A DNA stretch of 64,000 nucleotides from Acidobacteriota bacterium (GCA_022711715.1 JAKLEC010000001.1:112860-176859), one strand, 5' to 3'; shown: positions 686 to 64,000, counted from the first letter of the stretch. Notes: generated from the sequence alone by a model not told the origin. Numbers and translations are program-made.

Positions 686-795
686 CTTGGCGTACGGCGT
701 ACGGCAAACGGTGGACGGCAAAAGGCAATTTCAGGATCAGGTGCTGGCATGGCAGTTGCCGTATGCCCTACGCCGTATGCCGTATGCCGAGCTCA
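686..795. repeat. GCCGTAY-type hairpin element (empty form)
   Basis: Left arm ggcgtac ggcgtac ggcaaac ggtggac ggcaaaa (689-728). Right arm tgccgta tgcccta cgccgta tgccgta tgccgagc (757-792). About 25-nt loop. Confidence 0.85.
745..760 (+). promoter_or_regulatory. Sigma54-type -24/-12 element TGGCAT-N5-TTGCC
   Basis: TGGCATGGCAGTTGCC has the canonical GG-N10-GC spacing, about 60 nt upstream of ATG 820. It sits in the loop of a repeat hairpin, so it could be fortuitous. Confidence 0.4.
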
Positions 796-819
796 TCGTC
801 GAGGTCCTGAGAGGATAAG

Positions 820-19357: not shown

Positions 19358-19461
19358 TTTTTTTACAAACCCGGATTCATCGACACATTGAATCTCAATA
19401 TGGATTTTTTTGCTATTTCCTTTGCCGTGCATCGTTCATAAAAGGTATTTTACTTTTGCTT

Positions 19462-19700
19462 CACCATACGCCGTATGCCGTACGCCGTGCGCCAAGGGCA
19501 TTTTCCTCTTTCATCACCGTATGCCGTATGCCGTACGCCCAGGGCATTTTCCTCTTTCATCACCGTACGCCGTATGCCGTACGCCCAGGGCATTTTCCTC
19601 TTTCTTCACCGTACGCCGTATGCCGTACACCGTGCGCCCAGGGCATTTTCCTCTTTCTTCACCGTACGCCGTATGCCGTACGCCGTGCGCCCAGCTCTCC
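19462..19700. repeat. Tandem repeat, 4.5 copies of a 46/53-bp unit (GCCGTAY heptamers + CAGGGCATTTTCCTCTTTCWT)
   Basis: Copies at 19462-19514 (53 nt), 19515-19560 (46), 19561-19606 (46), 19607-19659 (53) and 19660-~19700 (partial). The length difference is exactly one heptamer. Confidence 0.92.
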
Positions 19701-19701
19701 T

Positions 19702-19729
19702 TTCACTCAGCGCCCCACTTTGCTATAAT
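19702..19729 (+). promoter_or_regulatory. Sigma70-type promoter TTCACT-16-(TGc)TATAAT for the bat operon
   Basis: Perfect extended -10 at 19721-19729, immediately after the 46/53-bp tandem repeat. Confidence 0.5.
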
Positions 19730-26146: not shown

Positions 26147-26254
26147 CACTTGTCACTCAGCTCGAAAATCTATCGCTGCTTCTCGTCATGCGTCACGATA
26201 GATGGATCTGTTACTGTTTCGAGTCACGAATCACGAATCACGAATTACGATAGC
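26147..26254. repeat. Degenerate array mosaic (GTCAC-type and CACGAAT-type units)
   Basis: cacttgtcactcag...ctcgtcatgcgtcacgatag...gagtcacgaatcacgaatcacgaattacgatagc. Confidence 0.7.
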
Positions 26255-30284: not shown

Positions 30285-30400
30285 TGATAGTGATAGTGTT
30301 AGTGTTAGGAACAGCAATAGCAGAACTTTTTTCATCCTGACACGTTTCGGATCAGGGGCTTTCACTTTTACCTTTTTCCTTTTACCTTTTGCCTTTTGCC
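30282..30400. repeat. (TAGTGA)n / GTGTTA array - GGAACAGCAATAG core - CTTTTNC heptamer array
   Basis: The array starts with the ackA stop codon. cttttac ctttttc cttttac cttttgc cttttgc at 30361-30400. Confidence 0.85.
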
Positions 30401-30482: not shown

Positions 30483-30678
30483 GCTCGGCGTACGGCTGAC
30501 GGCATACGGCAACAGCACGTCTGCGATAGATAGCGCTGCGCAACTAGTGACGGACAAATTACCTCAGCGTATGGCTTTGACAATCTTGGATTGAAAAACT
30601 CATCGAAATTCAGGATTGCGCAGCAATGTCCCACTTTGGCTTTACCGTACGCCGTATGCCGTACGCCGTATGCCAAGC
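30483..30678. repeat. GCCGTAY-type hairpin element (filled form, insert of about 120 nt)
   Basis: Left arm gctcggcgtacggctgacggcatacggcaacagc. Right arm ggctttaccgtacgccgtatgccgtacgccgtatgccaagc. Inner 9-bp inverted repeat gctgcgcaa (30534) / ttgcgcagc (30616). Confidence 0.85.
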
Positions 30679-30711
30679 TCATCGAAGTCCCAAAATGCCG
30701 CCGCTGATGGT

Positions 30712-35204: not shown

Positions 35205-35208
<4 letters not shown>

Positions 35209-36080: not shown

Positions 36081-36137
36081 GAAAGAAGTTCTGAAAATGC
36101 CTTTCCCACTCTCTCTTCCCTCTGTCTTCCCTTGAGA
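35947..36137. repeat. GGGAAG-type element with inserted CACGTAC x3 array; overlaps the rluB 3' end
   Basis: cagggaagaaacagggaagaatgagggaagacagagggg ... ccacgtaccacgtaccacgtacc (36019-36043) ... gtgagaaagaagttctgaaaatgcctttcccactctctcttccctctgtcttcccttgaga. Confidence 0.85.
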
Positions 36138-36160
36138 TGGGTGGTTCTCAGGTGTAGAAT
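36132..36160 (+). promoter_or_regulatory. Sigma70-type promoter TTGAGA-17-TAGAAT for paralog 1
   Basis: The -35 box is the terminal CTTCCCTTGAGA of the GGGAAG-type repeat. The same architecture occurs at 37205-37233. Confidence 0.5.
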
Positions 36161-38160: not shown

Positions 38161-38261
38161 CTATCGTAATTCGTAAGGCGTAATTCGTGATTCGTAGCGG
38201 CAAAAGGCCGATCCGTTGCGGTTCTTTTTCCGAATTCCGAATTACGAATCACGAGTGATCG
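38161..38261. repeat. CGTRATT-armed hairpin element, copy 3
   Basis: ctatCGTAATTCGTaaggCGTAATTCGTGATTCGtagcggcaaaaggccgatccgttgcggttctttttcCGAATTCCGAATTACGAATCACGagtgatcg. Confidence 0.9.
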
Positions 38262-46066: not shown

Positions 46067-46294
46067 GATATCGTGACGCGTAACGCGTGACAAGTAACCG
46101 CGTCAGGACGAGCGCTCGTGATTCGTCATTCGTAATTCGTGATTCGCAACAGCAATGGAACGGTTCATGCTATTCGAACACTCTCTCGTCATTGATTCGC
46201 TTCAGGGCTTTCCTAACACGAACACAAACACGAACACATAGTTAGATCGTTCGTTCTTTTTGGCTTTCCTACCACTATCACTACCACTACCACT
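46067..46294. repeat. Composite mosaic: GCGTRAC array - linker - CGTRATT array - CAACAGCAATGG core - CACGAA/CACAAA array - TAYCAC array
   Basis: Colinear with 3016-3153. The final taccac array continues into the conserved 3' flank of the sulfatase-like gene. Confidence 0.85.
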
Positions 46295-46310: not shown

Positions 46311-48632
46311 CTACTTCTTCTCGAGCTCGGCAATGAGCCTTTCCCCCTCGCGCGTGTAGAAGTCCCGGCGCTCGGGGTTGCCCAGCGCGTTGAACAAATT
46401 GGTCAGCACGAAATAGCCGAACAGCGTGTCGCGGTCCCGCGGCGGCACGGCGATCCCCTTTAGGCAGAGGTCGACGGCTTCGTTGAGGTCGCCTCCCCGG
46501 CGCAGCAGGATCTCGGCCAGGTGGAAGCGCGGCAGCTTCAGCCCGGGGTTGGCGGCGATGGCCTGGCGGTAATAGCCCTCGGCCTCGCCGGCCCGTCCGG
46601 CCTGCTTGAGCAGGTTGCCCAGGTTGGCTGCCGCCTGGAAGTTCTGGCCGTTGACTTCCAGCTCGCCGCGATAGAACTCGATGGCCGCCTCAGGCTTCTG
46701 CAGCGCCTCCTGCACCTGCGCCAGCAGGAAGCGGGTGTTGCGCGCCCGCGGGTTCTCCCTGAGGCCGCGGCGCAGCAGCTCCTCGGCGGCGGCGTAGTCC
46801 CCCTTCAGGATCAGCGCCTCGCCGGCCTGGTTGTAGGCCTGGGGAGCGGCCGGGTCGATGGCGATCGCCCGCCGCAGCAGCGGCAGGGCCTCGTCGGGAC
46901 GGCGCTGCAGCATGCGGATGTGGCCCAGCTCCTCCAGCAGCGCCGGGTCGTCGGGGAAGACCTTCAGGAAAGCCAGGTTCTCCTCGGCGGCGGCGTCGAG
47001 CTCGCCCGACGTGGCCAGGGTCTTGACGACGTTGATCATCAGGAAATTGTTGTCGGGCTTGAGGGCCAGGGCGCGGCGGAAGGCCTCGAGCGCCTCCTGG
47101 CGCCGCTTGCGCTTCAGGTTGACGTTGCCCAGCAGGCTCCAGGCGTCGGCCAGCTCGGGCTCCTCGCGCGCCAGCTTCTCCAGCAGGACGGCGGCGTCCT
47201 CGAAGCGCTTCTGCTCCATCAGCGCGGATGCCCGCGAGATGGAGTTGCCGACGCCGATCTTGTCCTTGGGATCGGCCAGCGGCCTGGACTCGTCGACGCG
47301 CACCTCGCCCGACAGGTAGCCCAGGGCGGCCAGCCGCCGCTGGTCCTCGGGGCTCAGGCGGCTGCCGGCGGCGCTGCGCAGCGCGTTGCGCGAGCGGCGG
47401 CTGACGAAGTCCAGCAGGCGGCCGCGCAGCTCGCGGCGGCGCGGATCGCCAACCAGGTCGCGGCTCTCGCCGGGATCGCGCCCCAGGTCGTACAGCTCGT
47501 CGCGCGGCGCCAGGATGTACTTGAGCGCGCCGCGGTGGAAGGACTGCAGGGGCGACCAGCCGAAGTGGAAGCGGGGGTAGAAGGTCTCGCTGTAGGCCTC
47601 GCCCTCTCCGCCGGCATCGCGCCCGTCCAGCTGGGGCCAGAGCGACCGGCCCTGCCACTCCCGGGGCGCGGGAACGGCCAGCATCTCGAGGATGGTCGGT
47701 GCCACGTCGACCAGCTCCACGGTCCTGGGCACCGTGCGGGCGGCGAACGGCCGCGGGGCGCGGACGATCAGCGGCACGCGGACCGTCGTCTCGTACAGGA
47801 ACATGCCGTGGCCGTCCTCGCCGTGGTCGCCGAGCCCCTCGCCGTGGTCGGCGGCCACCACGATGAGCGTGCGCTCATACAGCCCCTTCTCCTTGAGAAA
47901 GGCGATGAACTTGCCCAGCTCGGCGTCGGTGTACTCCACTTCTCCGCGGTAGGCGGCGCGCGGTGTGCCGCGCGGGTAGGGCGGCGGCGGGTCGTAGGGT
48001 GAGTGCGGGTCGTACAGGTGGATCCAGGCGAAGAAGCGGCGGCCGCCGATCCTCTCCAGCCACTGGCGGGCCTCGCCCAGCACCTCGTCGGCGCGCTTCT
48101 CGTTCTCCAGCAGGATGCGGCCGTAGCGCGCCGGGTCGAAGCGGTCGGAGTAGAGGTCCCAGCCCTGGGCCAGTCCCCACTTGTTGTGCAGCACGAACGC
48201 GCCGATGAAGGCGGCGGTGGCCATCCCGCGCCCCTGCAGCACCTCGCTGAGCAGGGTCAGCGCGGCCGGCGCCTGGAAGCCGCCGTTGTCGCGGACCTGG
48301 TTGAAGGGCGGGTAGGTGCTGGAGAGGAGCGAGGTGTGCGAGGGCAGGGTGAGCGGCACCTGGGCGACGCAGCGGTCGAAGCGCGCCCCTTCCCCGGCCA
48401 GGGCGTCCAGCGCCGGCGTGCGCGCCAGCCCGGCGCCGTAAGCACCGACATGGTCGGCGCGCAGGGTGTCGATGGTGACCAGGATGACGCTGAGGTCGCC
48501 TGAGGGGAGCTGGCGGCCGGGAGCGGACAGGAAGCGGAAGGCCAGCCAGGCGGCCGCTGCCAGCAGCGCCACGGCCCCGGCAACGGCCCACCAGCGCGGA
48601 CGGAAAGGACGAGCGGCGGCGGGGACGGTCAT
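46311..48632 (-). CDS. Sulfatase-like (Thr-type) hydrolase fused to TPR domain, paralog
   Basis: VTIDTLRADH...VPLTLPSHTSLLS...AADHGEGLGDHGE plus TPR. 773 aa, colinear with 48892-51213. Confidence 0.88.
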   Translation of the reverse strand: MTVPAAARPFRPRWWAVAGAVALLAAAAWLAFRFLSAPGRQLPSGDLSVILVTIDTLRADHVGAYGAGLARTPALDALAGEGARFDRCVAQVPLTLPSHTSLLSSTYPPFNQVRDNGGFQAPAALTLLSEVLQGRGMATAAFIGAFVLHNKWGLAQGWDLYSDRFDPARYGRILLENEKRADEVLGEARQWLERIGGRRFFAWIHLYDPHSPYDPPPPYPRGTPRAAYRGEVEYTDAELGKFIAFLKEKGLYERTLIVVAADHGEGLGDHGEDGHGMFLYETTVRVPLIVRAPRPFAARTVPRTVELVDVAPTILEMLAVPAPREWQGRSLWPQLDGRDAGGEGEAYSETFYPRFHFGWSPLQSFHRGALKYILAPRDELYDLGRDPGESRDLVGDPRRRELRGRLLDFVSRRSRNALRSAAGSRLSPEDQRRLAALGYLSGEVRVDESRPLADPKDKIGVGNSISRASALMEQKRFEDAAVLLEKLAREEPELADAWSLLGNVNLKRKRRQEALEAFRRALALKPDNNFLMINVVKTLATSGELDAAAEENLAFLKVFPDDPALLEELGHIRMLQRRPDEALPLLRRAIAIDPAAPQAYNQAGEALILKGDYAAAEELLRRGLRENPRARNTRFLLAQVQEALQKPEAAIEFYRGELEVNGQNFQAAANLGNLLKQAGRAGEAEGYYRQAIAANPGLKLPRFHLAEILLRRGGDLNEAVDLCLKGIAVPPRDRDTLFGYFVLTNLFNALGNPERRDFYTREGERLIAELEKK

Positions 48633-48891: not shown

Positions 48892-51213
48892 CTACTTTTT
48901 CTCGAGCTCGGCAATGAGCTTCTCCCCCTCGCGGGTATAGAAGTCGCGGCGCTCGTTGTCGCCCAGGGCGTTGTAGAGGTTGGTCAGCACGAAGTAGCCG
49001 AACAGCGTCTCGCGGTCCCGGGGCGGCAGCGCGATCCCCTCCAGGCAGAGGCCGACGGCGCGCTCCAGGCCGCGGCCCTGGCGCAGCAGGATCTCCGCCA
49101 GGTGGAAGCGTGCCATCTTCAGCCTGACGTCGGCGGCGACGGCCGCCTCGTAGTACCGGGCCGCTTCGTCGAGCCGGTCCTGCTGCTTCAGCAGGTTGGC
49201 CAGGCTGACCGCCGCCTCGTGGCGCCGGGGATCGGTCTCCAGCTCGCGGCGGTAATGCCCGGCCGCCTCCTCTTTCCGCCCCTCGCCCTCGGCGGCCAGC
49301 CCCAGCAGGTAGTGGCTTCCCGCGGCATTGGGCACGACGGCCAGCACCCCGTCCAGCAGCTCCCGGGCGGCGGCGAAATCGCCGGCGGCGACGCGCTTGG
49401 CGGCCGCCTCGTTGAGCCGGGGGTAGATCCCGGGATCGGCGGCGAAGGCCCGGCGCAGCGCCTGCAGCCCGTCCGCGCCGGCGCCCTGCGCCAAACGGAT
49501 GCGCCCCAACACGGCCAGGAGCTCCGGGTCGTTGGGGGCGTCGCGCAGGAAGCGTTCGGCCTCGGCGGCCGCCTCAGCGAGGCGGTTCAGCTTCTCCAGC
49601 GTCTTCAGCAAGTCGAGGCGGTTGTTGGCGTCCTCGGGCTTGAGGGCCAGGGCGCGGCGGAACGCGGCCAGCGCCTCTTCGAAGCGGCCGCCGGCGAACA
49701 GGGCGTTGCCCTCCAGGTTCACGGCGTCGGCGAAGCCGGGGTTGCGCCCGACGATGCCGCGGGCCGTTTCCAGCGCCTCCTGCCAGCGCCCCGAGCCGAG
49801 AACGGCCACCGCCTTGCCGAAGGCCACATAGTCGCCCAGCCTGTCCTTGGGATCGGGCAGCGTTTCATCGTCGCCGGCGGCGGCGACGGAGCCGCCCAGG
49901 TAGCCGAGAGCGGCCAGGCGGCGGCGGTCCTCGGCGCTCATGGCCTGGATGGCGGAAGGCGCCAAAGCCCCGCGGCCGGCCTTCTGCATGAACGCCAGTC
50001 CGCGCCCGCGCAGGTCGTCGCGGCGGCGCGGCCGCTCGCCGGCGAGGTTGCGCCGCTCGCCCGGGTCGGCGGCGAGGTCGTAGAGCTCGTCGCGCGGCGC
50101 GAAGATGTATTTCTCGCCGTTGCGGTAGAAGGCCTTGAGCGGCGACCAGCCGTAGTGCAGCCGCGGGTACCAGGTCTCGCTGTAGGCGTCGCCGAAGCGG
50201 GAGTCGCTTTCGCCGGCCAGCAGCCGCGTCAGCGGCTTCCCCTGCCAGCCGGGGGGGGCGGGAATGCCCAGCAGCTCCAGGATGGTCGGCGCCACGTCGA
50301 CCAGCTGCACCGTCGTGGCCACCGTGCGGGCGGCGAACGGCCGCGGGCCGCGGACGATCAGCGGCACGTGCAGCGTCGTCTCGTACAGGAAATAGCCGTG
50401 CTTCTGCTCGCCGTGGTCGTCGAGCCCCTCGCCGTGGTCGGCGGTCGCCACCACCAGGGTCCGCTCCCAGAGCCCCCTCTCCTTCAGGAAGGCGAAGAAA
50501 CGGCCCAGCTCGGCGTCGGTGTACTCCACCTCGCCGCGGTAGGGGTCGTTGCCGCGGTCGAAGGGCGGCGGCGGGACGTAGGGGAAATGGGGGTCGTAGA
50601 GGTGGATCCAGGCGAAGAAGCGCCGGTTGCTGATGGCGGCGAGCCAGCCGCGGGCTTCGGCCAGCACTTCGCCGGCCGGCTTCTTGGCCAGCAGATCCAG
50701 GCTGCCGCCGGCTCCGGGATCGAAGCGGTCGGCGTACAGGTCGAACCCCTGGTTGAGCCCCCACTTGCCGTGCAGGACGTAGCCGCCGATGAAGGCGGCG
50801 GTGGCGAAACCGCGCCCGCGCAGCACCTCGCTGACCAGCTCCAGCTGCGGCGGCGCCTGGAAGGCGCCGTTGTCGCGCAGGCGGTGGAACAGCGGCTGCG
50901 TGGCCGACAGCAGCGAGGCGTGCGATGGCAGGGTGAGCGGCGCCTGGGCGACGCAGTGCGCGAAACGCGTCCCCTCGCCGGCCAGGGCGTCGAGCGCCGG
51001 CGTCGCGGCCCGCCCCTGGCCGTAGGCGCCCACGTGGTCGGCGCGCAGGGTGTCGATGGTGACCAGCACCACGTTCCAGGAGGCGGGGTCGGCAAGGCCG
51101 GCCCGCGGGCGCAGCAGCCAGACGCCCAGGGCCAGCAGCGCGGCCAGGGCCATGACGGCCGGCCACAGGAGCCGACGGCGGCGGCCGGAGGGGGAAGCGG
51201 ATGGCGTTCTCAC
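48892..51213 (-). CDS. Sulfatase-like (Thr-type) hydrolase fused to TPR domain, paralog
   Basis: VTIDTLRADH...APLTLPSHASLLS...TADHGEGLDDHGE plus TPR. GTG start. Same C-terminal ...REGE(R/K)LIAELEKK as its neighbour. Confidence 0.88.
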   Translation of the reverse strand: MRTPSASPSGRRRRLLWPAVMALAALLALGVWLLRPRAGLADPASWNVVLVTIDTLRADHVGAYGQGRAATPALDALAGEGTRFAHCVAQAPLTLPSHASLLSATQPLFHRLRDNGAFQAPPQLELVSEVLRGRGFATAAFIGGYVLHGKWGLNQGFDLYADRFDPGAGGSLDLLAKKPAGEVLAEARGWLAAISNRRFFAWIHLYDPHFPYVPPPPFDRGNDPYRGEVEYTDAELGRFFAFLKERGLWERTLVVATADHGEGLDDHGEQKHGYFLYETTLHVPLIVRGPRPFAARTVATTVQLVDVAPTILELLGIPAPPGWQGKPLTRLLAGESDSRFGDAYSETWYPRLHYGWSPLKAFYRNGEKYIFAPRDELYDLAADPGERRNLAGERPRRRDDLRGRGLAFMQKAGRGALAPSAIQAMSAEDRRRLAALGYLGGSVAAAGDDETLPDPKDRLGDYVAFGKAVAVLGSGRWQEALETARGIVGRNPGFADAVNLEGNALFAGGRFEEALAAFRRALALKPEDANNRLDLLKTLEKLNRLAEAAAEAERFLRDAPNDPELLAVLGRIRLAQGAGADGLQALRRAFAADPGIYPRLNEAAAKRVAAGDFAAARELLDGVLAVVPNAAGSHYLLGLAAEGEGRKEEAAGHYRRELETDPRRHEAAVSLANLLKQQDRLDEAARYYEAAVAADVRLKMARFHLAEILLRQGRGLERAVGLCLEGIALPPRDRETLFGYFVLTNLYNALGDNERRDFYTREGEKLIAELEKK

Positions 51214-51261: not shown

Positions 51262-51457
51262 GTGATAGTGATAGTGTTTGTGTTAGTAACAGCAAATCGA
51301 CGAACTCTTATCTACCGGCACCTGGCGACGGGCTCTTCACTTTACCCTTTTTACTTTTGCCTTTTGCCTTTCTGAGTGTCAGTATCAGCAGAAAACGGAA
51401 CGAACTGAAGCAAGGGCAACACCTTGCTTTTCACTTTTCACCTTTCACTTTTCACTG
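51262..51457. repeat. Array mosaic: GTGATA/GTGTTN - AACAGCAAAT core - CTTTTNC array - GTGTCAG units - TTTTCAC array
   Basis: Read directly from the sequence. cctttctgagtgtcagtatcagcag is homologous to 54541-54568. Confidence 0.85.
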
Positions 51458-51462
51458 AAGAT

Positions 51463-51492
51463 AAAAAAAGGGGGGCACTTTCGTGCCCCCCC
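51463..51492 (-). terminator. Intrinsic terminator after TonB-dependent receptor 1
   Basis: Minus strand reads GGGGGGCAC-GAAA-GTGCCCCCC followed by U7. Confidence 0.9.
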
Positions 51493-51520
51493 ATGGGAAC
51501 GAAACGATCGAGTTCCTAGA

Positions 51521-54358
51521 TCAGTTGAACTCGATGCGGGCGCCGAGCTGGAACATGCGCGGATCGTTGATGGTCAGCATGCGCTCGAACGAATACAGCG
51601 GGTTGCTGGAGTTGGCCCAGACCGAGGTGGCCACGCCCTGGTTGAAGACGTTGAAGCAGTCGGCGAAGGCGGCCAGGGTCACGTTCTTGATCTTGAAGGC
51701 CTTTTCCAGGCGTAGGTCGAGCCGCACCGCGTTGGGCAGGCGGCGGGCGCCGCGTTCCTCGGCGTTGATGGTCGTGCCGGAACGGCTCTGGGTGACGCTC
51801 ACGCCCAGGTAGCGGCTGGTGACGACGCGGTTGTAGGTGCCGCCACTCAGGAAGCGGAAGTAGCCGCTCAGGTTGATGCCCAGCGGGCCGGCCCACATGC
51901 CCTGCACCTTGAACTGGTGGCGGGCGTCGAGGTCCAGCGTGCCGTAGGCGTTGACGTGGGCGTTGGGATCGCCGAACAGGCCGGAGGTGCCCAGGGAGGC
52001 GTTGCCGCGGCCCTGCGAGATGAGGCCCTTGCCCTCGCCGTAGACGTAGGAGGTGTTCAGCGCCCAGCCGTGGCTGAAGCGCTTGTTGAGGGTGAGTTCC
52101 ACGCCGGTGTAATCGCGCTCGGCCCCCGGCGGGTTGACGATGTAGATCTCGCTGGCGGCGGTGTTCTTCTTGCTGTAGAAGGTGACGGTCTTGCCGTCGA
52201 AGGGATCGACGGTGGACTTGGCGATCCAGTTCTTGCTCCAGTCGAGCTCGCCGCTGGACATCAGCTTGTCGATGTCCAGCTGGGCGGCGTCGACCTGGTG
52301 GACCAGCCTGCGGTCCCACTTGCGGATGAAGCGGGCGCCGGCCGACCAGTCGGTGAAGAGCTCGCGCTCCAGGCCGACCGTCAGCTCATCGGTATAGGGT
52401 GCCTTGAGGTCGTAATTCTTGTAGCCCACCTTGGTGGAGGCGGGGACGGACCAGACCGACTCGGTGCCGGGGATCTGGGTGCCGTCGGGGTTCAGGAAGA
52501 CGATCCAGCCGACCCAGCCGTTGGGATGGGCGATGTTGATCCAGCCCGTCTGGTTGGCCATGGTGTAGCGCGACCAAGAGGCCTTGGCCAGCGTCTTGTT
52601 GTCGCCGGTTACGTCGTAGATGAGGCCGAAGCGCGGGGCCAGCGTGGTCCAGGAGAGCCCCTTGATCGGGTCGGTGATGGAGCGGTTAACGGTCAGGTAG
52701 CTGAGGGCGCCGGGGAGCTGGAAGGCGCCTTCGCCGCCGCCCTGCTTGGGCCAGGTCAGCGAGTTGTACTCCAGGCGCAGGCCGAGGTTCAGGGTCAGGT
52801 GGCGGTTGACGCGCCAGGTGTCCTGGATGAAGCCGAAGTAGTCATCCATGTTGTCCTTGCGGTCGAAGCCGTCGCCGGCCAGCTGCAGGCCGTAGTAGTA
52901 GTAGCCATCTGTGCCGAGCATGGCGTTGTAGTGGCAGTTGGAGACGGGGTCGGCCTTGCCGTAGACCATCCAGCCGACGCGGGCCAGCTGCGCCTCGCCG
53001 CCGACCTTCAGCTCGTGCGTGCCCATGAAGTCGTCAATGAAGGTGGTGGCGTCGACGTTGAAGTTGTAGCGGTCGCGGCCGTTGTGGTCCTGGGTGCGCC
53101 AGGCACCGCCGTTGTCGAGGTAGTTGTAGGTGTACAGGTCGTAGTAGAAGGGGGCGTCGAGGTTGGAATCGAGGTTCATCTGGAACTGGCTGATGCCGAC
53201 CTTGAAGTTGGCGTACATGTTCTCGCCGAAGTAGCGGTTCCAGTTGGCATTGATCACGTGGGTGGGGGTGGTCTGCTTGACGGTGTTGTTCTCGGTGTGC
53301 CAGCGGTCGGCGTTGCGGTTGTTGTTCAGGCGGTCGGAGTAGTTGTAGGAGAGGACGAACTTGTTCTTCTGGTTGGGCTGGAAGGTCAGCTTGATGTAGG
53401 GCAGGGGCTGGGTGACCTTGATGGTGGTCTTGGCGTTGGGCTTGTTGTAGGGGAAGCCGATCGCGTAGTTCTGCACCTGCTTGTAGGTGGCGGAGGCGAA
53501 GAACCACAGCTTGTCCTTGATGATCGGGCCGCCGATGGAGAAGGCGGGCTCGAACTCGAGGTGGTTGCCCGAGTAGCCCTCGTTCTCCAGCACGGTGCCC
53601 TTGCGGTTGTCGCCCACCAGGCTCTCGTGGTTCAGGTAGAAGGAGGCGGCGCCGGTGAAGCGGTTGCCGCCCGACTTGGTGACCACGTTGACCATGGCGC
53701 CGCGCACCGAGCCGTACTCGGCCGAGAGGCCGCCGGTCTGGACCGAGATCTCGTCCATGATGTCCAAGCCGAAGGTGACGTTGGTGACGCCGGTGGCCGG
53801 GTCGCCCAGGTTCACGCCGTCCAGGTTATAGGAGTTGTCCATGGTGGCCGAGCCGTGGGCGGAGTCGCCGGTCATGCCCGGGGCCATGTTGACGAAGTTG
53901 GCCAGGTTGCGGGGGGCGGGCAGCGACTTCAGGAACTGCACGTCGAAGTTGGCCGCGCGCGTCTGGCGCTGCGTGTCCACCGTGGGGCTCTGGCCGGTGA
54001 CCACGATCGCTTCCTGGATCGCTTCCTGCTTGATGGTGGCGTTGACCGTGAAGGTCTGCAGCGCCGCCACCTTGATGTCCTTGCGGATCACGGTGCGGAA
54101 GCCTTCCAGCTGGAAGGTGATTTCGTAGACGCCGACGGGCAGGTTGGCGAAGCGGTAGACGCCGTTTTCGTTGGTGACGGCGGTCATCTTGCCGATCACC
54201 AGGGCCGGCGAAGAGATGACTACGGTCACGCCGGGAACGGATACGCCGTCTTCCATGGAGACGACACCCATCAGCGTGCCGGTCTGGCTGGACTGCCCGT
54301 ACCCGACGGTCATGACCGCGAGCAGGAGCATCAGCCCGATGCTGAGCTTTTTCATCAT
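51521..54358 (-). CDS. TonB-dependent receptor with N-terminal CarboxypepD_reg-like domain
   Basis: Signal peptide. GTLMGVV...GVSVPGVTVV cap domain. Plug and beta-barrel. AGGAGG SD. Sigma54 promoter upstream and intrinsic terminator downstream. Confidence 0.9.
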   Translation of the reverse strand: MMKKLSIGLMLLLAVMTVGYGQSSQTGTLMGVVSMEDGVSVPGVTVVISSPALVIGKMTAVTNENGVYRFANLPVGVYEITFQLEGFRTVIRKDIKVAALQTFTVNATIKQEAIQEAIVVTGQSPTVDTQRQTRAANFDVQFLKSLPAPRNLANFVNMAPGMTGDSAHGSATMDNSYNLDGVNLGDPATGVTNVTFGLDIMDEISVQTGGLSAEYGSVRGAMVNVVTKSGGNRFTGAASFYLNHESLVGDNRKGTVLENEGYSGNHLEFEPAFSIGGPIIKDKLWFFASATYKQVQNYAIGFPYNKPNAKTTIKVTQPLPYIKLTFQPNQKNKFVLSYNYSDRLNNNRNADRWHTENNTVKQTTPTHVINANWNRYFGENMYANFKVGISQFQMNLDSNLDAPFYYDLYTYNYLDNGGAWRTQDHNGRDRYNFNVDATTFIDDFMGTHELKVGGEAQLARVGWMVYGKADPVSNCHYNAMLGTDGYYYYGLQLAGDGFDRKDNMDDYFGFIQDTWRVNRHLTLNLGLRLEYNSLTWPKQGGGEGAFQLPGALSYLTVNRSITDPIKGLSWTTLAPRFGLIYDVTGDNKTLAKASWSRYTMANQTGWINIAHPNGWVGWIVFLNPDGTQIPGTESVWSVPASTKVGYKNYDLKAPYTDELTVGLERELFTDWSAGARFIRKWDRRLVHQVDAAQLDIDKLMSSGELDWSKNWIAKSTVDPFDGKTVTFYSKKNTAASEIYIVNPPGAERDYTGVELTLNKRFSHGWALNTSYVYGEGKGLISQGRGNASLGTSGLFGDPNAHVNAYGTLDLDARHQFKVQGMWAGPLGINLSGYFRFLSGGTYNRVVTSRYLGVSVTQSRSGTTINAEERGARRLPNAVRLDLRLEKAFKIKNVTLAAFADCFNVFNQGVATSVWANSSNPLYSFERMLTINDPRMFQLGARIEFN

Positions 54359-54540: not shown

Positions 54541-54889
54541 CTTTCTGAGTGTCAGTGTCCGTGTCAGCAAGAAAGAACTTTCAGCAACCTATGTGTTCGT
54601 GTTAGTGTTTGTGTTAGTGTTAGGAAAGCCAGGATCATGAACACCGTCGAGATATAAGTGGTAGTGATAGTGATAGTGGTAGGAGCGGCATGAACCGATC
54701 TAATGCCGTTGCGGATCACGAATTACGAATCACAATGGGTTATTTGCTGTTCCTCGTCACGCGTCACGCGTCACGATTGTTTTGGACAGATCGGGTGTCA
54801 GTGATAGTGTTAGGAACAGCAATCAACGAAATCCTATCAAGAACCGAGCAAAGGGCTCTTCACTTTTACCTTTTTCCTTTTACCTTTCG
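54541..54889. repeat. Super-mosaic containing seven array types in about 350 bp
   Basis: GTGTCMG (54541-54570), GTGTTN (54593-54624), GTGRTA (54658-54683), small hairpin cggcat...atgccg, CACGAAT (54713-54732), GTCACGC (54755-54777), GTGATA/GTGTTA + GGAACAGCAAT (54796-54827), CTTTTNC (54858-54889). Confidence 0.88.
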
Positions 54890-54912: not shown

Positions 54913-54941
54913 AAAAAAAAGGGGGCACGTTCGTGCCCCCC
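54913..54941 (-). terminator. Intrinsic terminator after TonB-dependent receptor 2
   Basis: Minus strand reads GGGGGCAC-GAAC-GTGCCCCC followed by U8. Homologous to 51463-51492. Confidence 0.9.
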
Positions 54942-54965
54942 GGGAAAAAGAAGCGGGTCCTTGGG

Positions 54966-57815
54966 TCAGTTGAACTCGATGCGCGCCCCCAGCTGGAACA
55001 TGCGCGGGGTATTGATGGTCAGCATGCGCTCGAATTCGTAGGCGGGGTTGCTGGAGTTGGTCCAGACCGTCGTGGCGATGCCCTGGTTGAAGACGTTGAA
55101 GCAGTCGGCGAAGGCGGCCAGGGTGACATTCTTGATCTTGAAGGCCTTCTCCAGGCGCAGGTCGAGCTGCACCGTGTCGGGCAGCCGGCGCGATCCGCGC
55201 TCTTCGGCGTTGATGACGGCCCCGCTGCGGCTCTGGGAAACGGACACGCCCAGGTAGCGGGAGGTGATGGTGCGGGTGTAGGTGCCGCCGCTCAGGAAGC
55301 GGAAGTAGCCGCTCAGGTTGATGCCCAGCGGGCCGGCCCACACGCCCTGCATCTTGAACTGGTGGCGGGAATCAAGGTCCAGCGTGCCGTAGGCGTTGAC
55401 GTGGGCGTTGGGATCCTGGAAGAGGGAGGAGGTGCCCAGCGCCGAGCCCACCCGGCCCTGGGAGATGAGACCCTCGCTCTTGCCGTAGACGTAGGAGGTG
55501 TTCAGCGCCCAGCCGTGGCTGAAGCGCTTGTTGAGGGTGAGCTCCAGGCCGGAGAAGTCGCGCTCGGCGCCCGGCGGGTTGACGATGTGGCATTCCTTGG
55601 CCACGGTGTCGATCTTGCTGTAGAAGGTGACGGTCTTGCCGTCGAAGGGATCGGTCGCGGTCTTGGCGATCCAGTTCTTGCTCCAGTCGAGCTCGCCGCT
55701 GGCCATCAGCTTGTCCATGTCGAGCTGGGCGGCGTCGACCATGTGCATCAGGTTGCGGTCCCACTTGCGGATGAAACGGGCGCCGGCCGACCAGTCGGTG
55801 AAGATCTCGCGCTCGAGGCCGAGGGTCAGCTCGTCGGTGTAGGGCGCCGAGAGCTTGTAATCCTCGTATCCCACCCTGGTGCTGGAAGGGAGCCACAGGG
55901 GCCTCTCGGTATTGGGAATCGGCGTGCCGTCAGGCTCCAGGTCGATGAAGTAGGTGATCCAGCCGTTGGGATGGGCCTCGTTGACCCAGCCCACCTGGTT
56001 GGGCATGGTGTAGCGCGACCAGGAGACCTTGGCCAGCGTCTTGTTGTCGCCGGTCACGTCGTAGATGAGGCCGAGGCGCGGAGCCAGCGTGGTCCAGGAG
56101 AGCCCCTTGATCGGCTCGGTGACCGTGCGGTTGACGGTCAGGCCGCTCAGTGCGCCGGGGAGGGTGATGGCGCCGCCGTCGCCCTGCTTGGGCCAGGTCA
56201 GCGAGTTGTACTCCAGGCGCAGGCCGAGGTTCAGGGTCAGGTGGCGGTTGACGCGCCAGGTGTCCTGGACGAAGGCGAAGTAGTCGTCCATGTTGTCCTT
56301 GCGGTTAAAGCCGTCGCCCTGCAGGACGAGGCCCAAATAGTAGATCCCGCTCTCGCCGAGCATGCCGTTGTAGTGGCAGCCGGTTTTCGGGTCGGCCTTG
56401 CCGTAGACCAGCCAGCCGACGCGGGCCAGTTGCGCCTCGCCGCCGACCTTCAGCTCGTGCGTGCCCATGAAGTCGTCGATGAAGGTGGTGGCGTCGACGT
56501 TGACGTTGTAGCGGTCGCGCGAGTTGTGGTCCTGGGTGCGCCAGTTGCCGCCGTTGTCGAGGTAGTTGTAGGTGTACAGGTCGTAGTAGAAGGGGGCATC
56601 GAGATTGGAATCCAGGTTCATGTCAAAGCGGCTGACGCCGACCTTGAAGTTAACGTACATGTTCTCGCCGAAGTAGCGGTTCCAGTTGGCGTTGATCACG
56701 TGGGTGGGGGTGGTCTGCTTGCTGGTGTTGTTCTCGGTGTGGTAGCGGTCGGCGAAGCGGTTGTTATTGAGCTGGTCGGAATAGTTGTACGAGAGGGTGA
56801 ACTTGTTCTTCTGGTTGGGCTGGAAGGTGAACTTGATGTAGGGCAGCGGCTGGGTGATCTTGATGGCCGCCGGGTCGGGCTTGTTGTAGGGAAAGCCGCT
56901 GACGAAGCGCTGGGTGTCCTTGTAGGTGGCGGAGGCGAAAAACCACAGCTTGTCCTTGACGACCGGGCCGCCGATGGAGAAGGAGGGCTCGAACTGCCGG
57001 TGGTTGCCGGTCAGGCCTTCGTCCTCCAGCACGGTGCCCTTGCGGTTGTTGCCCACCAGGCTCTCGTGGTTGAAATAGAAGGAGGCGGCGCCGCTGACCC
57101 GGTTGCCGCCCGACTTGGTGACCACGTTGACCATGGCGCCGCGCACCGAGCCGTACTCGGCCGAGAGGCCGCCGGTCTGCACCGAGATTTCGTCCATGAT
57201 GTCCAGGCCGAAGGTGATGTTCTGCAGCCCGGTGGCCGGGTCGCCCAGGTTGACGCCGTCGAGGTTGACCGAGTTGTCCATGGTGGCCGAGCCGGAGGCG
57301 GAGGAGCCGCCGTTGACGTCGTCGGCGATCAGTCCCGGCGCCATGTTGATGAAGTTGGCCAGGTTGCGCGGGGCGGGCAGCGACTTCAGGAACTGCACGT
57401 CGAAGTTGGCCGCGCGTGTCTGCCGCTGGGTGTCGACCGTGGGGCTCTGGCCGGTGACCACGATCGCTTCCTTGATCGCCTCCTGGCGGATGGTGGCGTT
57501 GACCGTAAAGGTCTGCAGGGCGGCCACGCGGACGTCCTTGCGCACGTAGGGCCGGAAGCCCTCCAGCTGGAAGTCGAGCTCATAGACGCCGGGCGGCAGG
57601 TTGGCGAAGCGATAGACGCCGTTCTCGTTGGTCACGGCGCTCATCTTGCCGATCACCAGGGCCGGCGAGGCCGCGGTCACCGTGACGCCGGGGATGGAGA
57701 CGCCGTCCTCCATGGTGACGACGCCCATCAGCGTGCCGGTCTGGCTGGACTGCCCGTGCACCGCGGCGAAGGCCGCGAGCAGGAACAGCAGCGTGAAGAA
57801 TGATTTTTTGATCAT
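54966..57815 (-). CDS. TonB-dependent receptor with N-terminal CarboxypepD_reg-like domain (tandem paralog)
   Basis: Colinear with 51521-54358. ATG 57815 (GGAGG SD, signal peptide MIKKSFFTLLFLLAAFAAVHG) is preferred over 57845, which coincides with the predicted sigma54 transcription start. Confidence 0.9.
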   Translation of the reverse strand: MIKKSFFTLLFLLAAFAAVHGQSSQTGTLMGVVTMEDGVSIPGVTVTAASPALVIGKMSAVTNENGVYRFANLPPGVYELDFQLEGFRPYVRKDVRVAALQTFTVNATIRQEAIKEAIVVTGQSPTVDTQRQTRAANFDVQFLKSLPAPRNLANFINMAPGLIADDVNGGSSASGSATMDNSVNLDGVNLGDPATGLQNITFGLDIMDEISVQTGGLSAEYGSVRGAMVNVVTKSGGNRVSGAASFYFNHESLVGNNRKGTVLEDEGLTGNHRQFEPSFSIGGPVVKDKLWFFASATYKDTQRFVSGFPYNKPDPAAIKITQPLPYIKFTFQPNQKNKFTLSYNYSDQLNNNRFADRYHTENNTSKQTTPTHVINANWNRYFGENMYVNFKVGVSRFDMNLDSNLDAPFYYDLYTYNYLDNGGNWRTQDHNSRDRYNVNVDATTFIDDFMGTHELKVGGEAQLARVGWLVYGKADPKTGCHYNGMLGESGIYYLGLVLQGDGFNRKDNMDDYFAFVQDTWRVNRHLTLNLGLRLEYNSLTWPKQGDGGAITLPGALSGLTVNRTVTEPIKGLSWTTLAPRLGLIYDVTGDNKTLAKVSWSRYTMPNQVGWVNEAHPNGWITYFIDLEPDGTPIPNTERPLWLPSSTRVGYEDYKLSAPYTDELTLGLEREIFTDWSAGARFIRKWDRNLMHMVDAAQLDMDKLMASGELDWSKNWIAKTATDPFDGKTVTFYSKIDTVAKECHIVNPPGAERDFSGLELTLNKRFSHGWALNTSYVYGKSEGLISQGRVGSALGTSSLFQDPNAHVNAYGTLDLDSRHQFKMQGVWAGPLGINLSGYFRFLSGGTYTRTITSRYLGVSVSQSRSGAVINAEERGSRRLPDTVQLDLRLEKAFKIKNVTLAAFADCFNVFNQGIATTVWTNSSNPAYEFERMLTINTPRMFQLGARIEFN

Positions 57816-58166: not shown

Positions 58167-58194
58167 AAAAAAAAGGCGGCCTCAGCGGGCCGCC
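58167..58194 (-). terminator. Intrinsic terminator about 230 nt downstream of the prolyl oligopeptidase stop
   Basis: Minus strand reads GGCGGCC-CGCUGA-GGCCGCC followed by U8. The intervening 3' region is filled with repeat arrays. Confidence 0.7.
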
Positions 58195-58219
58195 CATTTC
58201 ATATTACTATGCTCGCGTT

Positions 58220-58426: not shown

Positions 58427-60553
58427 CTACTTGCACGTCATGCCCAGGTTCTTGAACACGAACGCCCAGGTGTCGGCCGAGATCTCGATCGCCTTGCGCA
58501 GGTTGGACGAGCCGTGGCCCGAGCGCGTCTCGACGCGGATCAGCACCGGGTTGTCGCCGCGCTGCTTCTCCTGCAGGGTGGCGATGAACTTGAAGGAGTG
58601 GGCCGGGAAGACGCGGTCATCGTGGTCGGCGGTGGTCACCAGCGTGGCCGGGTAGCGGACGCCGTCGCGGAGGTTGTGCAGCGGCGAATAGGCGTGCAGG
58701 TACTTGAACTGCACCGGGTCGTCGCTGGAGCCGTACTCCACCGCCCAGCCCCAGCCGACGGTGAACTTGTGGTAGCGCAGCATGTCCATGACGCCCACCG
58801 CGGGCAGGGCCACGCGGAACAGGTCGGGGCGCTGGGTCATGACCGCGCCGACCAGCAGGCCGCCGTTGGAGGCGCCGGATACGGCGAGGCGCGCCGGCGC
58901 GGTGTACTTCTCGCGGACCAGGTACTCGGCCGCGGCGATGAAGTCGTCGAAGACGTTCTGCTTCTTCTCCAGCATGCCGGCCTTGTGCCAAGCCTCGCCG
59001 TACTCGCCGCCGCCGCGGATGTTGGCCACGGCGTAGACGCCGCCGTTCTCCAGGAACACCAGGTTGGCGGCGCTGAAGTAGGGGGACATGCTGGCGTTGA
59101 AGCCGCCGTAGGCATACAGCAGGGCGGGATTGCCGCCGTCCCGCTTCAGGCCCTTCTTGTGGACGATGAACATGGGCACCCGCGTGCCGTCCTGGCTGGA
59201 GTAGAAGACCTGCCTGACCTCGTAGTCCTCGGGGACGAACTTGGCCTCGCTTTTGCGGAACAAGGTGCTGGCACCGCTGGCGATGTCGTAGCGGAAGATC
59301 ACCGGCGGATAGTTGAAGGAGGTGAAGGTGTAGAAGAGGGTCGTGTCCTCCTTCTTGCCGCCGAAGCCACCGGCCGTGCCCAGCCCGGGCAGGGCGATCT
59401 CGCGCTCCAGCCTGCCCGCCAGGTCGTGCTGGGTGACGCGGGTGGCGACGTCCTTGAGGTAGTGGCAGAAAAGCTTGCCGCCGGCCGTGCCGGCGCCCAG
59501 CAGCACCTCGGGCCCCTCGGGGATCACCGTCTTCCAGTTTCCGCGCTCCGGGTTGGCGCCGTCGATCAGCACCACCCGGTAGTTGGGGGCGCCGTCGTTG
59601 GTGTGCACCAGGAAGGAGCCGCCGATGTTGTCGATCGGGGAATAGTCGAACTCGAAGCCGGGGCAGAGCGTGTGAAAGGCGTCATCGGCCTTGCCCAGGT
59701 CGCGGAAGCGCACCTCGGAGCCGTGCGTCCCCTCGGAGATGCCCAGGAAGAGGTAGCGGCCGTCCTCGCTGACGCCGGCGCCGTAGTAGCGCAGCGGGTG
59801 CGCCGCGTCGGCGAAGACCAGCGCGTCCTTCTCCTGCGGGTCGCCCAGCTTGTGGTAGTACACCTTCTGGTTTTCGTTCTTGGCCTTCAGCTCCTCGCCG
59901 GCCTGGGGGGCGTCGTAGCGGGAGTAGAAGAAGCCGTCGCCGCTCCAGCCGGCGCCGGAGAACTTCACCCAGCGCAGGCGGTCGGGAAGCTCTCTGGCGG
60001 AGGCGATCTCCATCACGCGGATCTCCTGCCAGTCGGAGCCGGCCTCGGAGCGGGCGATGGCCATGTAGCGGTTGTCCTGCGACTCGCCCAGCAGGCCGAT
60101 GCGCACCGTGCCGTCGGCCGACAGGGCGTTGGCGTCGACGAAGACCTGCGGTTCGCCGTCCAGCCCCTTCTGGTAGTAGATCACCGACTGGTTCTGCAGG
60201 CCGTTGTTCTTGCTGAAAAAGTAGTACTCGCCGACGCGGAAGGGGGCCGAGTAGCGAGGATAGTTGAACAGCTCCTCCAGGCGCTTCTCGATGCCGGCGC
60301 GGCAGGGAATGGCGTTGAGGTAGGCGAAGGTGAGCCGGTTCTGCTCCTCCACCCAGGCCTTGACCTCGGGGGCATTGTCGTCCTCGAGCCAGCGGTAGGG
60401 ATCGGCGACCTTGACGCCGTGGTAATCGTCCACCACGTCGACTTTCCTGGTTTGCGGATACGCGGGCCGCTTCTCCCCGCCGGCGCCGTCTGCGGACACG
60501 AAGCAGAAGAAGACGGCGACCATCACGATCGCGAACAGGGCTTTCTTCATCAT
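58427..60553 (-). CDS. Prolyl oligopeptidase (S9A family serine peptidase)
   Basis: N-terminal beta-propeller region. Nucleophile motif GASNGGLL. C-terminal HG. AGGAGG SD before ATGATG. Signal peptide. Confidence 0.92.
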   Translation of the reverse strand: MMKKALFAIVMVAVFFCFVSADGAGGEKRPAYPQTRKVDVVDDYHGVKVADPYRWLEDDNAPEVKAWVEEQNRLTFAYLNAIPCRAGIEKRLEELFNYPRYSAPFRVGEYYFFSKNNGLQNQSVIYYQKGLDGEPQVFVDANALSADGTVRIGLLGESQDNRYMAIARSEAGSDWQEIRVMEIASARELPDRLRWVKFSGAGWSGDGFFYSRYDAPQAGEELKAKNENQKVYYHKLGDPQEKDALVFADAAHPLRYYGAGVSEDGRYLFLGISEGTHGSEVRFRDLGKADDAFHTLCPGFEFDYSPIDNIGGSFLVHTNDGAPNYRVVLIDGANPERGNWKTVIPEGPEVLLGAGTAGGKLFCHYLKDVATRVTQHDLAGRLEREIALPGLGTAGGFGGKKEDTTLFYTFTSFNYPPVIFRYDIASGASTLFRKSEAKFVPEDYEVRQVFYSSQDGTRVPMFIVHKKGLKRDGGNPALLYAYGGFNASMSPYFSAANLVFLENGGVYAVANIRGGGEYGEAWHKAGMLEKKQNVFDDFIAAAEYLVREKYTAPARLAVSGASNGGLLVGAVMTQRPDLFRVALPAVGVMDMLRYHKFTVGWGWAVEYGSSDDPVQFKYLHAYSPLHNLRDGVRYPATLVTTADHDDRVFPAHSFKFIATLQEKQRGDNPVLIRVETRSGHGSSNLRKAIEISADTWAFVFKNLGMTCK

Positions 60554-60593
60554 GGGCCTCCTATGAAAATTTGGACCGGTGCGCAAGAGACAT

Positions 60594-60623
60594 ATTATAC
60601 GCCATAAGGGGGAAAATGGTTAA
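60594..60623 (-). promoter_or_regulatory. Sigma70-type promoter TTAACC-18-TATAAT for prolyl oligopeptidase
   Basis: Perfect -10 box on the minus strand, about 40 nt upstream of ATG 60553. Confidence 0.45.
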
Positions 60624-60641
60624 TTCATGACATCGGCACTC

Positions 60642-61028
60642 GGCGTAAGGCTCAAGGCGCAAGGTACAGGGCAACTGCACTGAATGGTGCAGATCGTAAA
60701 AGGGCAGTTACCCTATGCCCTGCGCCCTACGCCGTATGCCGAGCCGGGCGGCCTCGGGCCGCTATTCGCGCCCGATTGGCGCAAGGCTCAAGGCGCAAGG
60801 TGCAAGGGAACTGCGCTGAATGCTACAGTTCGTGAAAGGGCAGTAACCCTATGTCGTACGCCGTATGCCGAGCTGGGCGGCCTTCGGCCGCTATTCGCGC
60901 CCGATTGGCGCAAGGCTCAAGGCGTAAGGTATAGGGTAAAGGCACTGAATGGTTCAGATCGGGAAAGGGCCGCTACCCTACGCCCTATGCCGTACGCCTT
61001 ATGCCGAGCTGGGCGGCCTTCGGCCGCC

Positions 61029-61031
<3 letters not shown>
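60642..61031. repeat. Three tandem copies of a structured unit of about 129-136 bp (AAGGCNC arm / GCCGTAY-type arm hairpin + GGCGGCC-N4-GGCCGCC hairpin), abutting the rpoC stop
   Basis: Unit starts at 60642, 60778 and 60907. Each unit ends ...gggcggcc(t)tcggccgc(t/c)attcgcgcccgatt. Confidence 0.9.

Positions 61032-64000
<2,969 letters not shown>

Follow-up and report, generated by a model that had tools for sequence, protein, structure and literature searches.

What gave rise to the tandem array that directly follows rpoC in the 64,000-nucleotide stretch of Acidobacteriota DNA analyzed here (GCA_022711715.1, JAKLEC010000001.1:112860-176859; hereafter the window)? We propose that the array, three units each built of a short GC-rich stem-loop and a ~100-nt palindrome with arms of 7-nt repeats, is likely the product of a REPIN-cluster-like tandem amplification, in situ, of one composite segment; that is, of ordinary repeat turnover that calls for no new mechanism. 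The amplified segment would consist of the GC stem-loop at the rpoC stop codon, the heptamer-armed palindrome, and a linker containing terminal rpoC bases and downstream flank. From an ancestor in which rpoC was followed by the GC hairpin and one such palindrome, unequal recombination or replication slippage between repeats would have produced three units before the window lineage and that of a relative, L100, separated, and the array would later have changed as heptamers were gained and lost, units converted one another, and other repeats inserted into them, as is described for ordered REPIN clusters. The extra copies would then be selfish or neutral repeat DNA. The source is judged to be an uncultured Aminicenantes bacterium (Acidobacteriota). 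Throughout, coordinates are window positions, the sense of rpoC is the minus strand, and L-numbers denote relatives' loci, whose orthologous spacers were located through conserved rpoC-peptidase synteny; percentages given with these loci are nucleotide identities of the peptidase gene to the window unless stated otherwise.

Three units behind rpoC

The array is the highest-scoring tandem repeat that Tandem Repeats Finder reports from the whole 64 kb (60642-61027; 2.9 copies, period 136/129, 82-83% matches, score 485). It begins at the rpoC stop codon and fills most of the 478-nt spacer between rpoC, whose full product on the source contig has 1381 aa and all RNA_pol_Rpb1 domains (Pfam), and a prolyl oligopeptidase gene (Table 1). 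A repeat search places the copies at 60642, 60778, and 60907, the same unit starts that an earlier note on this DNA had given, and the three aligned units have a mean column identity of 84%, the longest exact stretch common to two of them being 28 nt. In the sense of rpoC, which ends ...ACC ATC GCG AAA TAG (stop codon TAG at 61031-61029), each unit runs from the short GC stem-loop through the motif (C/G)(A/G)GCTCGGCATA into the imperfect palindrome, in which GGCRTAN heptamers repeat along the left arm and a near-complementary run (NCCTTRCG) forms the right arm; by inverted-repeat search the arms are 23-34 nt long and 76-83% complementary. In unit 1, for example, the left arm reads GGCATAA GGCGTAC GGCATAG GGCGTAG GGT and the right arm ACCCTAT ACCTTAC GCCTTGA GCCTTGC GCC, and the loop (GGGTAGCGGCCCTTTC..GATCT) matches that of the single module in L095. 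The earlier note had described a GC hairpin followed by a long heptamer-armed hairpin in each unit, and this layout stands, but the units are not uniform: two bases are missing from the 5' side of the GC stem in units 2 and 3 (TAG is followed directly by CGGCC...), which leaves a stem of 6 bp rather than 8, unit 3 has the loop CGA and starts with CGGCTCGG instead of CAGCTCGG, and the complete right terminus (...CGCCGAGTGCCGA) is found only in the unit 3 palindrome.

The units are joined by an identical 16-mer, AATCGGGCGCGAATAG (60906-60891 and 60777-60762). The same variant precedes unit 2 of L100, and unit 3 of that locus has a second variant, GATCAAGCGTGAATAG. Anchored at the right, both variants align to the rpoC end as ATC--GCG-(G/A)AATAG, a score that 0.25% of random 16-mers from the window match (p about 0.0025). 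The unanchored local alignment of linker to rpoC end is weak (p about 0.035), about 3.6% of random sequences doing as well, and the linker also shows similarity on its 5' side, in GCGCCAATCGGGC, to the sequence that follows the single L095 module, GCGCCAAGCCCGGGC (p about 0.02); thus, at most the last ~6-10 bases of rpoC can be assigned to the duplication with some confidence. To that extent there is moderate support for the suggestion in the earlier note that the duplicated segment takes in the final codons of rpoC together with its stop. We take the rpoC end to be ancestral and the linkers to be the copies, because the module-free L004 lineage has the same rpoC end. On the simplest reading of these alignments, the duplicated block would have run from a few bases inside rpoC to just past the right arm of the palindrome.

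Could an assembler have expanded one unit into three? All available assemblies are apparently short-read, which favors such an artefact. However, the 478-nt spacer is base-for-base identical, within an exact 601-nt match, in three assemblies of different samples (MEGAHIT, ERZ27257456; SPAdes, ERZ761563 / GCA_035390365.1; JGI, Ga0116241), the units differ by ~15% and their shared exact stretches are too short to confuse assemblers, and a related three-unit array is present in another strain (L100). We therefore consider the chance of an assembly artefact to be negligible. All three TAGs fall in one frame, and a coding or read-through interpretation was also considered and rejected: the period of 136 is not a multiple of 3, and the rpoC frame meets several other stops as it passes through the array, so that there is no read-through open reading frame (ORF).

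The earlier note had remarked that none of the hairpins is followed by a U-tract, and a terminator scan of 60600-61030 agrees, finding no stem with a T-run between rpoC and the peptidase gene; the tails after the three GC stems are AGCTCGGCAT, CCAGCTCGGC, and CCGGCTCGGC, without the U-tract of an intrinsic terminator. The first canonical intrinsic terminator downstream of rpoC comes only after the peptidase gene (Table 1). Its GC hairpin has T-runs on both strands, as in a bidirectional terminator, and separates the peptidase gene with its heptamer arrays from the next TonB-dependent receptor gene. Insertion of the module into the U-tract of an ancestral terminator was considered but is not supported: unit 3 is not followed by a T-run, and the other copies lack flanking T-rich target duplications. 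The promoter-like site ahead of the peptidase gene is also present in L095 and L100 and takes the form CTAACA-18-TATAAT in L117. The spacer contains no canonical terminator, and the peptidase gene has a promoter of its own farther downstream; the transcribed 3' untranslated region of rpoC therefore presumably includes the spacer. Rfam returned no matches at gathering thresholds for the whole window; for 60400-61200 at E<=10 it returned only sub-threshold matches to generic long-hairpin microRNA precursor models and others, the best scoring 29.9 bits against a threshold of 100.

Copy number and constraint among relatives

Alignment of the regions downstream of rpoC in relatives, a comparison that the earlier note had proposed, reveals zero, one, or three modules at the orthologous site, and this whole range occurs among relatives at nucleotide identities of at least 95%. 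Three modules are present in the window, in L098, and in L100 (98.7%; rpoC 99.9%). Exactly one heptamer-armed palindrome, behind a AAGCGGCC/GGCCGCTT stem, is found in L095, L111, and L112 (about 95%). L106-L110 (about 95%) have a TAA stop, the stem AAGCGGCC-TGC-GGCCGCTT, and just nine bases from the start of the element (TGCTCGGCG), followed by unrelated repeats. L004 and L113 (85.5%) have the same rpoC end (ATCGCGAAATAG) with an unrelated 244-nt spacer and no module, and L005 (82.4%) and L007, in which no peptidase gene lies downstream of rpoC, have ordinary terminators of a GC hairpin and T8-9. Finally, in L117 (the P0004 lineage, 83% peptidase protein identity) TAG-GGCGGCC..GGCCGCC-AGCTCGGC precedes a single heptamer-armed hairpin, different in sequence, whose loop contains a canonical terminator (L117 1343-1369; ACACGG-cgaaatt-CCGTGT + TTTTTATT). 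L095 has a T-rich stretch, ATATTCATTTCTTTTTTCTTCC, after the right arm. The L117 and L095 lineages, unlike the window, may end transcription within the module. Downstream of rpoC in L007 (6990-7560), a more distant Aminicenantes genome, a region of (CTAACA)n hexamer repeats lies between two near-identical segments of ~100 bp (…GGTATTTTTTCTTGAA…CGCCATTCGCCCA…).

The three-unit arrays have themselves been remodeled. Unit 2 of the window and unit 2 of L100 are 96.9% identical. Unit 1 of L100, however, is 95.6% identical to unit 2 of the window and only 78.6% to unit 1, which points to conversion or turnover between units, and unit 3 of L100 is split by a nested palindrome of ~370 bp (L100 2540-2920) whose (GTGACRA)n arms belong to another heptamer family. 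Unit 1 of the window and the L095 module are 79% identical (21% different) with 11 gapped bases, whereas third-codon-position divergence between the same two loci is 8.6% in the peptidase gene and 4.0% in rpoC; the module diverges faster than synonymous sites. It would follow from these sequence comparisons that a single module is old at the rpoC site, that the triplication is derived and predates the split between the window and L100, and that the array has been remodeled since.

The stem that abuts the rpoC stop codon has a different character. It is 8 bp long in four lineages and exists in two versions, GGGCGGCC/GGCCGCCC in the window and AAGCGGCC/GGCCGCTT in L100, L095, and L106. Two of its pairs are changed on both sides, and one of these includes the third base of the stop codon (TAG vs TAA) with T/C opposite; from the internal copies of the GC stem the outer two pairs are gone. 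Over the last 1500 nt of rpoC, the window and L100 differ at only two positions, both in the final nine bases (ATC/ATT and TAG/TAA; window 61029-61037, L100 2265-2273). This confinement suggests that an exchange tract, of recombination or conversion, extends into the gene. Only the rpoC-proximal GC stem looks maintained, and we infer that the proximal stem-loop may be the functional rpoC 3' structure in this clade, with the distal copies as passengers.

By folding calculation, the whole array folds at -214.8 kcal/mol in the sense orientation (z = -8.7 vs shuffles), and unit by unit at -64.4 (unit 1, z = -5.2), -50.8 (unit 2, z = -2.25, barely better than shuffles), and -81.9 kcal/mol (unit 3, z = -6.3); in its 44-nt context, the proximal stem-loop folds at -20.8 kcal/mol. 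The antisense array folds at -211.2 kcal/mol (-65.7, -53.2, and -76.2 per unit). Consensus folds of the long hairpin computed from three or six units contain 1 compensatory pair among 42 or 31. Two ways of assigning a strand of function were rejected. Energies do not separate the strands, sense and antisense folding about equally, and the U·G pairs of the sense strand are not independent evidence because they trace to one T/C difference between left-arm and right-arm heptamers that was then amplified. No G3-type quadruplex motif is present on either strand of the spacer, and unit 1 holds a C-rich, G-poor stretch of ~70 nt (C/G about 2.5). Given their rapid divergence, the conversion between units, the loss in unit 2, the near absence of covariation, and the equal antisense folding, the long palindromes behave as unconstrained DNA palindromes and not as a conserved RNA structure.

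A dispersed heptamer-repeat system

A profile of the three units, searched against the window with nhmmer, finds four further loci, and the palindrome family is thus dispersed. Its members have termini (GATGAGCTYGGCATACGG... / ...CCGTACGCCGAGCTYAT), heptamer arms, and loop motifs in common, with the conserved ends GATGAGCTYGGC... / ...GCCGAGCTYAT, and all of them lie outside coding sequence. The two solo copies have no direct repeats at their flanks, and neither a target-site duplication nor a parent insertion sequence was identified. The closest member (689-807) recurs unchanged in four more assemblies of this strain. Another, the higher-order array near 19.5 kb, lies between divergent genes for a Yip1-domain protein (minus strand) and a BatA/VWA protein (plus strand), just upstream of the extended -10 promoter (TTGCTATAAT) of the plus-strand gene. 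Membership of the long hairpin in this family, together with the zero, one, or three units of relatives at 95% identity or more, supports the suggestion in the earlier note that the array may be a replication-slippage product of the repeat system.

Runs of at least two GGYRTAN heptamers number 14, at 5 loci, in the 64-kb window, vs 0 in 844,515 bp of other bacterial loci. Among JGI metagenome contigs the element terminus GCTCGGCATANGGCRTANGGC matched only 7 stretches, none of them an rpoC locus, and the family is rare outside this lineage. The tendency is not confined to one motif. By a motif-blind, lag-7 measure, the window and its close relatives have 3.1 runs of 7-nt periodicity per 10 kb, vs 0.03 per 10 kb for unrelated loci totaling 799 kb, and at least five heptamer families are represented (GGCRTAC, TTCGTRA, GCGTRAC, CCTTTTN, and CCACGTA); likewise, Tandem Repeats Finder lists period-7/14 repeats in the window. 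The runs lie outside the ORF map, except for one case in the 3' tail of a gene, and the ~9 kb of source contig beyond the window contains no further heptamer arrays. A literature search on Aminicenantes repeats returned nothing relevant.

Several other sites in the window belong beside these observations. The perfect inverted (GCGTRAC)4 copies at 14604-14634 and 14754-14780 are the arms of a long hairpin. A further long palindrome at 35940-36140 (AGGGAAGACAGAGGG / CCCTCTGTCTTCCCT), its loop containing (CCACGTA)3, overlaps the 3' tail of the ORF at 35205-36080, whose N-terminus, read directly, is S4/pseudouridine-synthase-like and whose annotated stop may be displaced by the repeat. Two pairs of tandem paralogues, the CarboxypepD_reg/TonB-dependent receptor genes at 51463-54335 and 54913-57792 (about 86% DNA identity) and the sulfatase-TPR genes at 47313-48482 and about 49900-51100 (about 78% identical), have spacers rich in CCTTTTN heptamers.

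Table 1. Features of the rpoC-peptidase region and of the dispersed repeat family, in window coordinates
Feature	Coordinates	Strand	Basis
rpoC, 3' part, cut by the window end	61029..63986	-	ORF list; Pfam RNA_pol_Rpb1_1..5
Proximal GC stem-loop GGGCGGCC-GAA-GGCCGCCC, 8 bp; begins with the G of the rpoC stop	61011..61029	-	sequence; folding
Unit 1 long imperfect palindrome	60907..61010	-	inverted repeat and folding
Linker 1, AATCGGGCGCGAATAG, ending in a stop-codon-like remnant	60891..60906	-	sequence, alignment
Unit 2 GC stem-loop GCGGCC-GAA-GGCCGC, 6 bp; outer two pairs of the proximal stem lost	60877..60891	-	sequence, folding
Unit 2 long palindrome; degraded, 7-nt deletion (one heptamer) in the left arm	60778..60876	-	alignment, folding
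Linker 2, AATCGGGCGCGAATAG, same as linker 1	60762..60777	-	sequence
Unit 3 GC stem-loop GCGGCC-CGA-GGCCGC, 6 bp	60748..60762	-	sequence, folding
Unit 3 long palindrome; arms 60633-60666 / 60709-60742	60633..60747	-	inverted repeat and folding
Promoter-like TTAACC-18-TATAAT ahead of the prolyl oligopeptidase gene	60594..60623	-	sequence prediction
S9 prolyl oligopeptidase gene, 707 aa, next after rpoC	58427..60550	-	Pfam Peptidase_S9_N and Peptidase_S9; homologues
Family locus, (GGCRTAC)5 and (GGCRTAC)2 arrays with embedded GC hairpin, 12 nt past the peptidase stop codon	58242..58437	-	profile search
First canonical intrinsic terminator downstream of rpoC, GGGCGGCC..GGCCGCC + T8, after the peptidase gene	58174..58195	-	terminator scan
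Closest dispersed member, ~105-bp heptamer-armed palindrome between two co-oriented genes	689..807	-	nhmmer, E = 1e-10
Dispersed member, ~215-bp palindrome, termini GATGAGCTTGGCATACGG ... CCGTACGCCGAGCTTAT	30484..30699	-	profile search
Second higher-order array, 4.9 copies of a 46-53-bp unit (three GGCRTAC heptamers + GGTGAAGAAAGAGGAAAATGCCCTGGGC)	19435..19715 (tandem copies 19447-19691)	-	profile search; Tandem Repeats Finder
Other heptamer-family sites	3067-3097, 14604-14780, 26219-26251, 30360-30400, 36014-36046, 38228-38254, 46116-46146, 51347-51456, 54863-54887		

Alternative origins and comparison with known systems

If the array is not simply repeat DNA, the three units together might be a selected multi-hairpin 3' end of rpoBC, acting as a U-tract-less or Rho-assisted terminator and a barrier to 3'-5' exonucleases that insulates the peptidase gene from heavily transcribed rpoBC. 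The window lacks a canonical rpoC-peptidase terminator, whereas L005, L007, and L117 have one; the sense RNA is very stable; compensated pairs maintain the proximal stem; one module persists in a lineage as distant as L117; the C-rich, G-poor stretch of unit 1 is of the kind used by Rho; and E. coli REP elements have such dual roles, a REP being both a partial Rho-dependent terminator and an mRNA stabilizer (bioRxiv 10.64898/2026.03.23.713779). Against these points stand the variable copy number among close relatives, the decay of the unit 2 hairpin, the splitting of unit 3 in L100 by a nested insertion, compensatory change in only 1 of 31-42 long-hairpin pairs, antisense folding as expected of a DNA palindrome and not of an RNA-selected fold, and module divergence in excess of that at synonymous sites. 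The family also occurs where no 3' end is expected, namely between the divergent genes at 19.5 kb. We consider this explanation unlikely, and the dedicated triple Rho-dependent or RNase-protective 3' end that the earlier note had envisaged is not borne out: copy number varies, unit 2 folds little better than shuffles, the L100 insertion is tolerated, and covariation is all but absent. It is nevertheless plausible, within the amplification that we favor, that the hairpins have some terminator or stabilizer effect; by analogy with E. coli REP, they would impede 3'-5' exonucleases and partly attenuate read-through.

The heptamer runs themselves could be the functional entity, as arrays of protein-binding sites or as G-quadruplex or hairpin switches, and the rpoC array would then be a binding platform of high valency. 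Their roughly 100-fold enrichment and extragenic location fit this idea, as do proposals from other phyla: the TAACTGA heptamer of Beggiatoaceae has been proposed to bind post-transcriptional regulators (PMC4679880), and GGGNATC heptamers have been proposed to form G-quadruplex structures (PMC4692102, with GGGAATC in Xanthomonas and GGGGAYT in Nostoc). However, a G3-type motif is missing from both spacer strands, orthologous units differ in both the sequence and the number of their heptamers, and the coexistence of at least five unrelated motifs is better explained by biased mutation, for instance slippage of the polymerase by 7-nt units (Mrazek 2007, on heptamer-rich 'long SSR' [simple sequence repeat] genomes, as summarized in later papers), than by a single binding protein. 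A binding function for the rpoC array is thus quite improbable. Still less probable is an origin by three independent insertions of an element of the REPIN or miniature inverted-repeat transposable element (MITE) type beside a preferred target, the GC hairpin. Hairpin-type copies in the window do have, as read directly, a GC-rich stem-loop 0-16 nt from one element end on the side of the upstream gene, and insertion of REPINs beside existing REPINs is documented, but independent insertion would not copy flank, and the identical 16-mer linkers, GC hairpin, and rpoC-like bases repeated with each unit are the signature of block duplication.

Five considerations weigh against the amplification scenario itself or narrow its reach. 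The proximal hairpin has no simple history, since the window type (TAG-GGCGGCC...GCC-AGCTCGG) is common to L117 and not to L100, with its 99.9% identical rpoC, and this implies recombination. The order of rpoC stop, GC hairpin, AGCTCGGC, and heptamer-armed hairpin also occurs in distant L117, so that one module could have a selected role. Within the 64 kb and the roughly 10 kb of further genome that were covered, the ten ORFs next to repeats encode no RAYT or other transposase and no Y1 transposase domain. For the dispersed copies neither target-site duplications nor empty sites could be defined, and therefore transposition cannot be separated from de novo growth of palindromes out of heptamer microsatellites. 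Finally, the consequences of the array at the RNA level we infer only.

What would a functional reading mean for the family as a whole? The heptamer-armed palindromes might be a lineage-specific class of transcribed intergenic elements, serving as U-tract-less terminators or insulators or as platforms for a factor of 7-nt periodicity. We regard this as doubtful, with a low probability. If it were true, the rpoC array would have been retained to shield the downstream promoter from very strong rpoBC transcription, and an unrecognized mechanism would be making many heptamer families in one genome. As it stands, the locus offers a natural time series of how extragenic palindromes amplify (no module, the GC hairpin alone, a single unit, a triple array, and a triple array altered by conversion and nested insertion) beside an essential and highly expressed operon, with flanking genes 95-99.9% identical. 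Repeat turnover here reaches the last bases of rpoC, and the TAA/TAG change is coupled to a compensating change in the stem. The practical bearing is on the annotation of 3' ends in metagenome-assembled genomes, on binning and assembly, and on strain typing.

Among known systems, the closest match is with REPIN clusters. In Pseudomonas fluorescens SBW25, ordered REPIN clusters consist of tandem hairpin repeats that include flank and reach 3-4 units and several hundred base pairs, and disordered clusters arise by insertion into existing elements (Bertels & Rainey 2011, PMC3116915). Like REPINs, the elements described here are an extragenic, over-represented, genome-specific family in which two inverted arms and a spacer form a hairpin of ~100 nt, and tandem copies include flank in ordered clusters; the nested insertion in unit 3 of L100 has its counterpart in the disordered clusters. 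Unlike REPINs, their arms are runs of 7-nt units instead of a unique ~25-nt REP, the classical 5' GTAG is not consistent, and the host belongs to another phylum (Acidobacteriota/Aminicenantes). REPs and REPINs proper are defined by their link to a RAYT; the array is likened to them by structure and distribution, with no RAYT linked to it. Similarly, E. coli REP/BIME elements are palindromes, frequently in groups, that are transcribed from between genes of the same orientation, lack a U-tract, and vary in presence between strains; partial (Rho-assisted) termination and protection of the upstream mRNA are documented for them. REPs, however, are about 35 nt long, whereas the present hairpins are about 100 nt and heptamer-periodic.

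The GC-rich stem-loop directly after the stop codon resembles an intrinsic terminator, and it is of the GGCGGCC/GGCCGCC type found in true terminators of this clade (58174-58195; L005), but none of the three stems is followed by a U-tract. With MITE-like elements (ERIC/IRU, Correia, and RUP) the palindromes share a length of 100-200 bp, imperfect pairing, terminal inverted repeats, and a place in transcribed intergenic regions; they differ in being heptamer-periodic inside and in that neither a target-site duplication nor a parent insertion sequence was identified. Finally, the window shows the intergenic enrichment of tandem 7-nt units that marks heptanucleotide long-SSR genomes, and this Aminicenantes clade is thereby marked as having a heptamer-repeat-rich genome type, of which the main examples elsewhere are cyanobacteria, Xanthomonas, Burkholderia, and Beggiatoaceae. 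As in the heptanucleotide repeats of Calothrix, Xanthomonas, Nostoc, and Beggiatoaceae, 2-5 or more 7-nt units stand in tandem in non-coding DNA, are restricted to a lineage, and vary in copy number between close relatives, and as in Xanthomonas, inverted pairs are able to form stem-loops. In contrast to those systems, the motif here is GGCRTAC, the phylum is another one, several unrelated motifs coexist, and the heptamers form the arms of long palindromes with conserved termini that are amplified as higher-order units of 50-136 bp.

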